From positions 19,816 through 83,815 of the forward strand of contig CACHQZ010000003.1 in NCBI GenBank assembly GCA_902582165.1: a stretch of DNA of 64,000 nt. The letters are read 5' to 3'. Under the pieces are notes generated by a model. The model saw only the letters and a list, made by a program, of their open reading frames with translations, had not been told where the DNA came from and made no database searches. Shown in pieces: positions 22,315 to 57,004 of the stretch. Numbering within the stretch: the stretch's first letter is position 1; the number at the start of each line of letters is the position of its first letter. Position numbers and translations under genes: made by a program. The DNA comes from an uncultured Pelagibacteraceae bacterium (GTDB lineage: Bacteria; Pseudomonadota; Alphaproteobacteria; Pelagibacterales; Pelagibacteraceae).

Positions 22315-22360
22315 ATAATTTGCATTTGACTTTTTACTGTATTTAGAGGAGAGTCCTCTA

Positions 22361-22504
22361 CGTAACGGGAGAGACCATTTAGGCGCCGAAGGAGCAACCA
22401 CCCCGGAAACTCTCAGGCAAAAGGACCGTTACCGTAATAACTCTGGAAAGCAGGCGAAAGCCTCACCGAAGGATTAAATCTCTCAGGTACATAGACAGAT
22501 GGGG
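22361..22504 (+). ncRNA. Tandem glycine riboswitch
   Basis: Aptamer 1: GTAACGG-GAGAGA..GCCGAAGGAG..CTCTCAGGCAAAAGGA-CCGTTAC. Aptamer 2: CTCTGGAAAG..CACCGAAGG..TCTCTCAGGT..GACAGA. Directly upstream of gcvT. Confidence 0.95.
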
Positions 22505-52269: not shown

Positions 52270-53397
52270 ATGAATTCTCTAGGCATTAAAAAACCAAACA
52301 AAGAAACTAAAGTTGTTGTTGCTATGTCTGGAGGCGTTGACTCTTCAGTTGTCGCTGCTTTAATGAAAGAAGAGGGTTATGATGTCACTGGTATTACATT
52401 AAAACTATATGATGATACTAAACAATCTAAAGAAAGCAGACAATGCTGCGCTGGACAAGATATTCTAGATGCTAAAAGAGTATCAGAAAAACTGAGTATT
52501 AATCACAAAATTTTATATTATCAAAAAAAATTTAAATCAGAAGTAATCGATTCTTTTATTGATAGTTATGCAGCAGGAGAGACTCCTATACCTTGTGTTC
52601 AATGCAATCAAACTGTTAAGTTTAGAGATTTATTTAGGTACGCTAAAGACTTAAATGCTGATGCGCTTATTACAGGCCATTACGTTTCTAGAATTCAAAA
52701 AAATGGACAAGCTAGCATGTATAGAGCTAAAGACCACAATAGGGATCAAAGCTATTTTTTATTTAATACCACACAGGAGCAACTTAATTATTTAAGATTC
52801 CCATTGGGAGAAATCGAGAAATCAGAGACAAGATCTATTGCAAAGAAATTAAATTTAAACGTAGCTGATAAACCAGATAGTCAGGATATTTGTTTTGTTC
52901 CTAATGGAGATTATAGCTCTGTAATAAAAAAATTTAGACCTGAATCATTTAAAAGAGGTAAGATCATTGATTTATCTGGTAATCAAATTGGTGAACATGA
53001 AGGTATTATTAATTATACTATAGGTCAAAGAAAGGGAATAAAAATTTCAAGTGACAAACCTCTTTATGTAATAAATATTAATGCTGAAAATAATACATTA
53101 ATAGTTGGAAAAAAAGAAAACTTAGAAATAAAAGAAATATTCTTAAGAGATTTAAATATTTTAGCTGCAAAAAAAGAATTTAACGAAATCGTAAATATAA
53201 AAGTAAGATCTACAGGCAGGCTACTCAAATCAAAAATAAATTTTATAAATAATAATGCTAAAGTTAAAATTTTAGACAGAGAAACAGGAATTTCACCCGG
53301 ACAAGCCTGTGTTTTTTACTCAAAAGACAAGGTTGGGGATAAAGTTTTAGGTGGTGGATGGATTGATAAGACTTTTAATAATTTTTTATCCACTTAA
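52270..53397 (+). CDS. mnmA: tRNA-specific 2-thiouridylase
   Basis: [48 protein letters not shown]. Confidence 0.97.
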
Positions 53398-53467
53398 TTA
53401 ACAATCCTTTCTAAGACACGCATTAAGTGATTATAAATTTTTGAGACATGTGATTTAATGATTTTAA

Positions 53468-53638
53468 TTAAGAGGCAACTCTTAACTGGCCATTTAAGGA
53501 AAAACCGAGAGGTTCAAGCTTAAAGGGCAGAAAGATGAACCTAGTAGCGCTAGAATAGTTCATCGGCAAGGTTCGGCGGTAGCGCCTAAAACGACGAGCC
53601 AAAACTACTAAATTTCTGGGCGAAAGCCTAGAAATTTA
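53468..53638 (+). ncRNA. Candidate structured non-coding RNA (five hairpins)
   Basis: GC-enriched island between convergent genes. Stems are capped by GCAA, GAGA and GAAA tetraloops, and two carry GTAGCGC. Confidence 0.7.
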
Positions 53639-54337
53639 AGTGGTTCTTCTCCAAAAAATTCTTGAAAGAATATAAAACAAAATAACACCAACAAAATAAT
53701 TCCATTCTAAAGCATGTTTAAAGTGCGTATTACCTGATTTAATTAAAATTGGTAAGCTAGACAAACCAACAACTATTAAAATAGCAACTAATATAATTTT
53801 AAAAAATAAAACTTTTTTATTAATTAAATCTTTAATCTTATTTTTTATTTTTAAAAAATGATAGACTAATATTCCTTGAGCAATTATCTCAAAAATGATG
53901 AACAAAAGTAATACAACTCTCCTGAACAATTTATATATCTGGATATCAAATTTTATTCCAAGAAATACTGAGTGAATAGCTAAAAAAATTGCAGATAAAA
54001 TACCGAAAGTTTTGAATTTATAACTAATATCTGTAGATTTGAAATTATTTATTAATATATTACTATTTTTCCAATAATAATAAAGCAATAAAGCAGTCAA
54101 CCACATTGCCGGTTTAAAAATTAAATACTGAGGAAAAGTTCTAGATGCTCTGCTAATCGACAGGCTTCCATCTAAATAAGGAATAGAAAACTTTGATCTA
54201 CCGATTTGATCAACTCTTAAAAATGTATTCTCTAAAAATTCAGGGTTTTGTGAAATTAACAAACAAAGATTAATTGCGATTAAAGGAATTAAAAAAATCC
54301 ATAAACTCAACTTTCGAATTTGAGTAATTTCATGCAT
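53636..54337 (-). CDS. Hypothetical membrane protein
   Basis: About six TMs; PYLDG..SISRASR, FKPAM, LEWN. Confidence 0.7.
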   Translation of the reverse strand: MHEITQIRKLSLWIFLIPLIAINLCLLISQNPEFLENTFLRVDQIGRSKFSIPYLDGSLSISRASRTFPQYLIFKPAMWLTALLLYYYWKNSNILINNFKSTDISYKFKTFGILSAIFLAIHSVFLGIKFDIQIYKLFRRVVLLLFIIFEIIAQGILVYHFLKIKNKIKDLINKKVLFFKIILVAILIVVGLSSLPILIKSGNTHFKHALEWNYFVGVILFYILSRIFWRRTT

Positions 54338-56923: not shown

Positions 56924-57004
56924 GTTGTAAATTGAGTCCCTAAGTGAATCAAAAGTGAATCAAAACGTGAACATTTTATATTTACAACTCAAAATTGTGG
57001 ATAA
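56924..57004. promoter_or_regulatory. Repeat/GANTC cluster with flanking inverted repeat and DnaA box
   Basis: GTTGTAAAT/ATTTACAAC inverted repeat encloses GAGTC, GTGAATCAAAA x2 and GTGAAC. TGTGGATAA at 56996-57004. Confidence 0.5.

Follow-up and report, generated by a model that had tools for sequence, protein, structure and literature searches.

Within the window, the 64,000-nt stretch of DNA from an uncultured Pelagibacteraceae bacterium that was analysed here, five consecutive hairpins (53468-53638, + strand) lie behind mnmA, the gene of a tRNA 2-thiouridylase, and we were interested in whether they form an RNA of their own, to which family such an RNA would belong and what it may do. The preliminary description had placed the five hairpins and considered them an orphan structured RNA. 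All five were found in the sequence at those positions: H1 (53468-53485) with a GCAA loop, H2 (53486-53530), which encloses an inner AACC-GAGA-GGTT hairpin, H3 (53534-53564; 8 bp) with the conserved loop GCGCUA (53547-53552), H4 (53570-53600; 9 bp) with the loop UAGCGC (53580-53585), and H5. The entire window was then scanned against Rfam with cmscan, followed by a permissive rescan of 53300-53800 at E <= 1. This led to a match of 53461-53602 (+) to RF02035 (IMES-2) with 155.5 bits (gathering cut-off 54.7; E 7e-43) that covered positions 1-141 of the 141 model positions, and no family other than IMES-2 was matched in 53300-53800 in the permissive rescan. H1 to H4 correspond to the four hairpins of the model, H5 falls beyond it, and the loops that characterize RF02035 were found as well, with GCAA on H1, GAGA on H2, and AGUAGCGCUA and GGUAGCGC on H3 and H4. 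The five-hairpin element is therefore not new: it is the full-length gene of the small structured RNA IMES-2, known from marine SAR11 (Pelagibacteraceae). Thus, the orphan status did not survive the comparison with Rfam that had itself been proposed as its test.

The IMES-2 motif was reportedly discovered in marine metagenomes by Weinberg, Perreault, Meyer and Breaker (Nature, 2009, 462:656). In Pacific metatranscriptomes the RNA is very abundant, a SAR11 isolate was later found to carry it, and Rfam has catalogued it since 2009, so that the element is without weight as a discovery. Our literature search on IMES-2 brought up nothing relevant on the family. The element agrees with the known family in the full-length model, the four hairpins, the GUAGCGC loops, the SAR11 host and the abundance in marine RNA libraries, and is an ordinary member that nothing sets apart. 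What goes beyond the Rfam model is the terminator hairpin H5, the shared upstream blocks, the presence or absence of the whole as a cassette, and the explicit covariation between the loops of H3 and H4.

Folding of the 191-nt stretch 53455-53645 gave -69.1 kcal/mol for the + strand compared with -42.2 +/- 3.8 kcal/mol for 200 dinucleotide shuffles (z = -7.1), none of which was as stable (0/200), and a weaker fold for the - strand of the same stretch (z = -4.7). For covariation, 109 distinct sequences were aligned, 85 from metagenomes, where the scan had been anchored on H1, H2 and the junction only, and 24 genome representatives. G-U combinations occupied 354 cells of this alignment versus 43 for A-C, from which it follows that the + strand is the RNA strand; together with the difference in z, this bears out the strand preference voiced at the outset. 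In the nested structure 93.3% of the cells were paired, compared with 32-43% when the partners were slid against each other, and 36 of the 45 pairs showed double-sided changes, which supports the four hairpins. RNAalifold arrived unaided at the same four helices, with compensatory changes in 31 of 35 pairs; the RNA core is placed at 53461-53602 (+) by cmscan. H4 carries a G.A mismatch that is invariant in the 109 sequences. The inner CTAG-TAGCG-CTAG hairpin drawn into H3 in the preliminary description is indeed present in the sequence, but it is confined to this genome and its close relatives and is not conserved; its CTAG/CTAG helix competes with the conserved pairing between the two loops described below.

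In the same alignment, the loops of H3 and H4 change together. Six combinations were observed for H3/H4, namely GCGC/GCGC, GUAC/GUAC, GCAC/GUGC, GUGC/GCAC, GAAC/GUUC and GUUC/GAAC, of which GCAC/GUGC occurs in genus g5 and in one unrelated metagenome lineage; in four of the six the two loops are non-identical yet complementary. The second pair of the proposed helix was CG in 86, UA in 21 and AU in two of the 109 sequences, the third GC in 82, AU in 25 and UA in two, so that these two variable pairs were unpaired in none of 218 cells. Overall, 94.9% of the cells of this helix were paired, compared with 6-56% for slid partners. As far as covariation among sequences can tell, the loops of H3 and H4 are thereby shown to pair with each other in a kissing (pseudoknot) helix of 4-6 bp, with GCGCUA at 53547-53552 (+) as its 5' strand and UAGCGC at 53580-53585 (+) as its 3' strand. 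H3 and H4 are adjacent, with a 5-nt linker between them. The arrangement is reminiscent of the textbook architecture of the purine riboswitch type, in which neighbouring hairpins of similar length are likewise held side by side by loop-loop pairing; in contrast to these riboswitches, IMES-2 matches no riboswitch family, has no conserved downstream gene and ends in a constitutive-looking terminator of its own.

The surroundings of the element were compared next to its sequence. In the window, IMES-2 lies between mnmA (52270-53397, +; Pfam PF03054, PF20259 and PF20258, tRNA_Me_trans domains) and a convergent ORF for a 233-aa multi-pass membrane protein (orf233; 53636-54337, -) without any Pfam or NCBIfam match. 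Genera g1, g9 and g10 share this order, mnmA followed by IMES-2 and the convergent orf233, as do about 70 of 120 metagenome loci; orf233 is kept beside IMES-2 in each of the three genera. mnmA is not the upstream neighbour in g5 or g6. A second context, with a tyrosine recombinase gene on the opposite strand, orf72, IMES-2 and a co-directional gene for an ogt-like alkyltransferase, is that of g6 and of about 35 of 120 metagenome loci, and in g5 the RNA is found between an SNase gene upstream and a convergent SRAP gene. Neither a tRNA nor another Rfam family was found beside the g5 and g6 copies. The element had been described as lying between convergent genes and hence as no 5' riboswitch, and both statements hold: mnmA (+) and orf233 (-) flank it here, and what lies downstream changes between a convergent membrane ORF, a convergent SRAP gene and a co-directional ogt-like gene, which is not what would be found for a riboswitch. 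As a possible protein partner orf233 was discarded, as its product is a multi-pass membrane protein with no RNA-binding signature and neither g5 nor g6 has the gene next to IMES-2. Its neighbours in a protein atlas point to a Frag1/DUF998-like fold, which may serve as a lead only.

Several blocks upstream of the RNA are shared between these contexts. Box 1 (TTATCCACT; 53389-53397, +) resembles a DnaA box and overlaps the last mnmA codons and the stop codon; it is invariant in 25/25 loci of the same genus, third codon positions included, and in the window a weaker second box follows 11 nt past it. Tandem DnaA-box-like 9-mers, TTATCCAC or TTATCCCC followed by T(T/C)CACA at a distance of about 11 nt, were present in all three contexts, 60-95 nt upstream of IMES-2 (window 53389-53408; loci L002-L026, L147-L193 and L199-L318). 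The next block, AAGTGAT(A/T) preceded by CA(A/C)nnA (53425-53433, +), would be a -35-like element or an activator site. As CAACTAnAAAGTGATAC it accompanies IMES-2 in every gene context, and AAGTGAT(A/T) is kept in g1, g5, g6, g9 and g10 regardless of the neighbours. An unbiased sample of 111 metagenome loci showed box 1 at a fixed distance in 81 and A[AG]GTGAT 40-43 nt ahead of H1 in 88. The putative -10 region TGTGATTTAAT (53449-53459, +) can be read as an extended -10 (TGn + TTTAAT) or as a TGTGAT hexamer; T.TG.T is kept in all lineages, as part of a T.TG.T(A)nnnT element. The next 5-6 nt vary, and conservation then sets in sharply. Since a scan for a strict sigma-70 consensus promoter at the element found no site, the predicted -10 is deduced from conservation alone. 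Transcription would start at about 53461-53467 from this -10-like sequence, and 53467 is the lowest position that is covered by a contig from an RNA library.

At the other end, H5 (53603-53645 in the MFE fold, +) consists of a 13-bp core at 53609-53638 with a GAAA loop and was recognized as a terminator-like site by a terminator scan. Every lineage has a hairpin at this position, with differing sequence, double-sided changes in 12 of 19 pairs and, in g5 and g6, a T-run behind it. H5 would thus be the intrinsic terminator of the IMES-2 transcript; its 3' arm contains the stop codon of orf233. Complete g6 genomes without IMES-2 retain the recombinase, orf72/75 and ogt, the genes that flank the RNA elsewhere lying side by side, and in G006, a g1 genome, mnmA is directly adjoined by another gene with neither IMES-2 nor box 1 behind it. 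These comparisons show IMES-2 to be a self-contained cassette of about 290 nt, comprising upstream blocks, RNA and H5, that is present or absent as a unit. The earlier view of an independent non-coding RNA on the + strand is confirmed by its own upstream blocks, the terminator hairpin and the three unrelated neighbourhoods. No IMES-2 match was obtained on viral contigs, so that a phage origin gains no support.

Expression was followed in public RNA libraries, whose contigs show presence and cannot show true RNA ends or expression levels. Of a 341-nt stretch with IMES-2 at its centre, 35-44% of the words sampled were contained in 14 marine RNA runs, which belong to about 10 studies. RNA libraries of four studies contained IMES-2 at very high depth, as the metatranscriptome check suggested earlier would have it: all contigs lay within 53467-53692, with hundreds of micro-variants and a summed word depth of up to about 280,000. 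For mnmA and the membrane ORF, no contig was obtained in three of four runs, the uncovered part of which is no evidence either way. Contigs passed through H5 up to about 53645-53657, and two studies also had poly(A) loose ends behind 53603, 53605 and 53607. These hint at a shorter form beside the one that contains H5, with its end just past H4 at the 3' boundary of the Rfam model. Part of the RNA may accordingly be trimmed to about 53605, which would give the roughly 140-nt form modelled by Rfam.

The genome (0.95 Mb in 33 contigs, 85% complete, 29.7% GC) carries a single copy of IMES-2, and one copy each was found in 25 of 36 other genomes of its genus. An order-wide sample gave IMES-2 in 4/4 genomes of g1, 3/4 of g5, 29/88 of g6, 1/1 of g9 and 1/1 of g10, a fuller search raised g5 to 12/15, and the RNA was not found in g7 and g8 in the order sample nor in any of 45 genomes of the sister family. 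Among five tested g1 genomes without IMES-2, four were also without mnmA, indicating assembly gaps instead of loss, and the fifth, G006, is a true absence. Many of the g6 genomes without IMES-2 are complete. Searching public genomes with a loose loop pattern gave mostly chance matches in GC-rich genomes and a handful of Pelagibacteraceae records, and the homologues come from marine metagenomes. Judged from the genomes at hand, IMES-2 is restricted to five genera of one SAR11 family and is dispensable, since only about one-third of the sampled g6 species have it, a distribution that fits poorly with a core housekeeping role.

Some single records deserve mention. Locus L183 (G193, labelled g5, 4% contamination) has a g1-type IMES-2 of 156 bits, the other g5 genomes having the divergent g5 type, and is probably a contaminant contig in the G193 assembly. 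L176 (G143, g6) is a divergent IMES-2 of 69.7 bits in which the H3 loop retains the palindromic UAGCGCUA but the H4 region has no UAGCGC partner for it; either this copy is decaying or it represents a variant with a different pairing. Among the metagenome contigs L199-L318, many end inside or at IMES-2, with matches at positions 2-70 or in the last bases, and assemblies seem to break there because a near-identical RNA is common to many strains. Elsewhere in the genome, an SRP RNA is present at C1:222698-222792, and the window contains a glycine riboswitch aptamer (22356-22438, +; RF00504, 64.2 bits), which is ordinary for SAR11.

Regarding function, our preferred guess is that IMES-2, as a compact fold, binds either a protein or a ligand and does not act as an antisense RNA. 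Within this, a trans-acting RNA that sequesters or scaffolds an abundant protein is the reading we would favour, if tentatively and at somewhat less than even chances. The recognition surface would be the compact fold itself, with its two GNRA loops, the invariant G.A mismatch, the A-rich loop tails and the kissing helix. That IMES-2 binds a small molecule or is catalytic has perhaps half that likelihood. These proposals are derived from the architecture of the RNA only. IMES-1, IMES-3, IMES-4, raiA and OLE are further abundant structured bacterial RNAs without known partner or phenotype. Like IMES-2, they stand alone, are highly expressed and combine a strong structure with tertiary-contact motifs. 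OLE and raiA are much larger than IMES-2, which among the genomes searched is confined to one SAR11 family and is dispensable within a genus. For SAR11 RNA biology, the transcription unit of IMES-2 is larger than the Rfam model, as it includes upstream boxes and a terminator hairpin, it is gained or lost as a cassette within a genus, and its seemingly duplicated loops are partners in one tertiary helix. These three points constrain models for one of the most abundant non-ribosomal RNAs of the ocean.

Among the other explanations, an antisense sRNA that acts in trans and uses a conserved single-stranded seed to pair with mRNAs fares best, although we consider it rather unlikely. A stand-alone, terminator-ended RNA with a regulated-looking promoter is what many bacterial sRNAs look like, and the palindrome UAGCGCUA in H3 could pair between molecules. 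However, no extended conserved unpaired stretch was found: the unpaired bases are short and purine- or A-rich without a pyrimidine-rich seed, which speaks against a seed-type sRNA, the most conserved loop bases are consumed by the internal kissing helix, and GNRA loops, an invariant G.A mismatch and four packed helices are unlike sRNAs of this type.

A substitute for 6S RNA, i.e. an RNA that binds RNA polymerase, is improbable. 6S RNA (RF00013) is also an abundant stand-alone regulatory RNA, IMES-2 is very abundant in RNA libraries, and a 6S match at E <= 1 was not obtained in this genome, although with a genome that is only 85% complete the absence of 6S is not established. Likewise, no 6S appears in a 2009 survey of P. 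ubique RNAs (PMC2704228), which lists tmRNA, SRP, RNase P and riboswitches. Against this, the shape of IMES-2 lacks the long rod with a central bubble, and two-thirds of the sampled g6 species as well as the whole sister family do without it. That the element had not been recognized as a 6S RNA agrees with its different secondary structure and the lack of a match to the 6S model, IMES-2 having been the only family at E <= 1 in 53300-53800.

The preliminary description had taken the two GUAGCGC loops of an unrecognized orphan RNA for twin sites, bound by a dimeric protein or pairing with a nucleic-acid target. GUAGCGC does occur in both loops, here and in most relatives, and loops that are as conserved as stems often contact something. 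But the element is Rfam RF02035, and sites for one and the same partner would be expected to stay identical, whereas the loops turn complementary (GCAC/GUGC, GUGC/GCAC, GAAC/GUUC and GUUC/GAAC). Since they covary as partners of each other, twin protein sites are not the explanation, and we regard this reading as very improbable.

Equally hard to maintain is a role in cis, either as 3' UTR or terminator of mnmA and the convergent ORF or, in g6, as leader or riboswitch of the ogt-like gene. The RNA directly follows mnmA, the stop of the convergent ORF falls within H5, and in g6 the start codon of the ogt-like gene lies within a few bases of the terminator. However, mnmA, orf72 and SNase alternate as the gene in front of this RNA and its shared upstream blocks, and the genes it faces are convergent or co-directional. 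Genomes without it keep both neighbours intact, and a strong terminator separates it from ogt. The changing neighbours exclude that it acts in cis on mnmA or ogt.

Finally, a small protein from the minus-strand ORF of 44 codons (53468-53602), for which nothing but the open frame in the window speaks, was rejected as having a negligible chance, since the frame is shifted or interrupted in 86 of the 109 homologues and only 23 are without an internal stop, no Pfam match was obtained, and substitutions track base-pairing and not codons.

Coming back to IMES-2 as a compact RNA with its own transcription unit, its expression would be regulated via the upstream TTATCCAC-type boxes. As a first guess, the factor that reads them may be DnaA, an assignment made from the box sequences that we hold to be possible but doubtful. 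TTATCCAC occurs in 20 copies in the genome, and three of five perfect TTATCCACA 9-mers are intergenic although about 95% of the genome is coding. A genome scan found no convincing other tandem DnaA-like pair or clear box cluster marking the origin; together with the weak second box in the window, this keeps the DnaA reading tentative. A still bolder proposal, to which we give only a small chance, is that the boxes are real DnaA sites or sites of a regulator that recognizes direct repeats spaced by 11 nt, and that they couple the level of IMES-2 to replication or growth state, with the kissing-loop fold binding an abundant partner. If true, it would be the first regulatory logic for IMES-2, in a streamlined cell with very few regulators.

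Perfect boxes were also seen apart from IMES-2. Outside the window, at G000:C2:42360-42480, a perfect TTATCCACA and then CAACTATAAAG, the same block as upstream of IMES-2, directly follow a tRNA gene, and about 60 nt past them there is a GC-rich hairpin with a T-run, so that this site is possibly a second small transcription unit with the IMES-2 type of promoter. The remaining intergenic perfect TTATCCACA boxes are found at 56997-57004 of the window (G000:C3:76812) and at G000:C4:40568, the latter just upstream of repeated Fur-box-like sequences of the GATAATCATT type.
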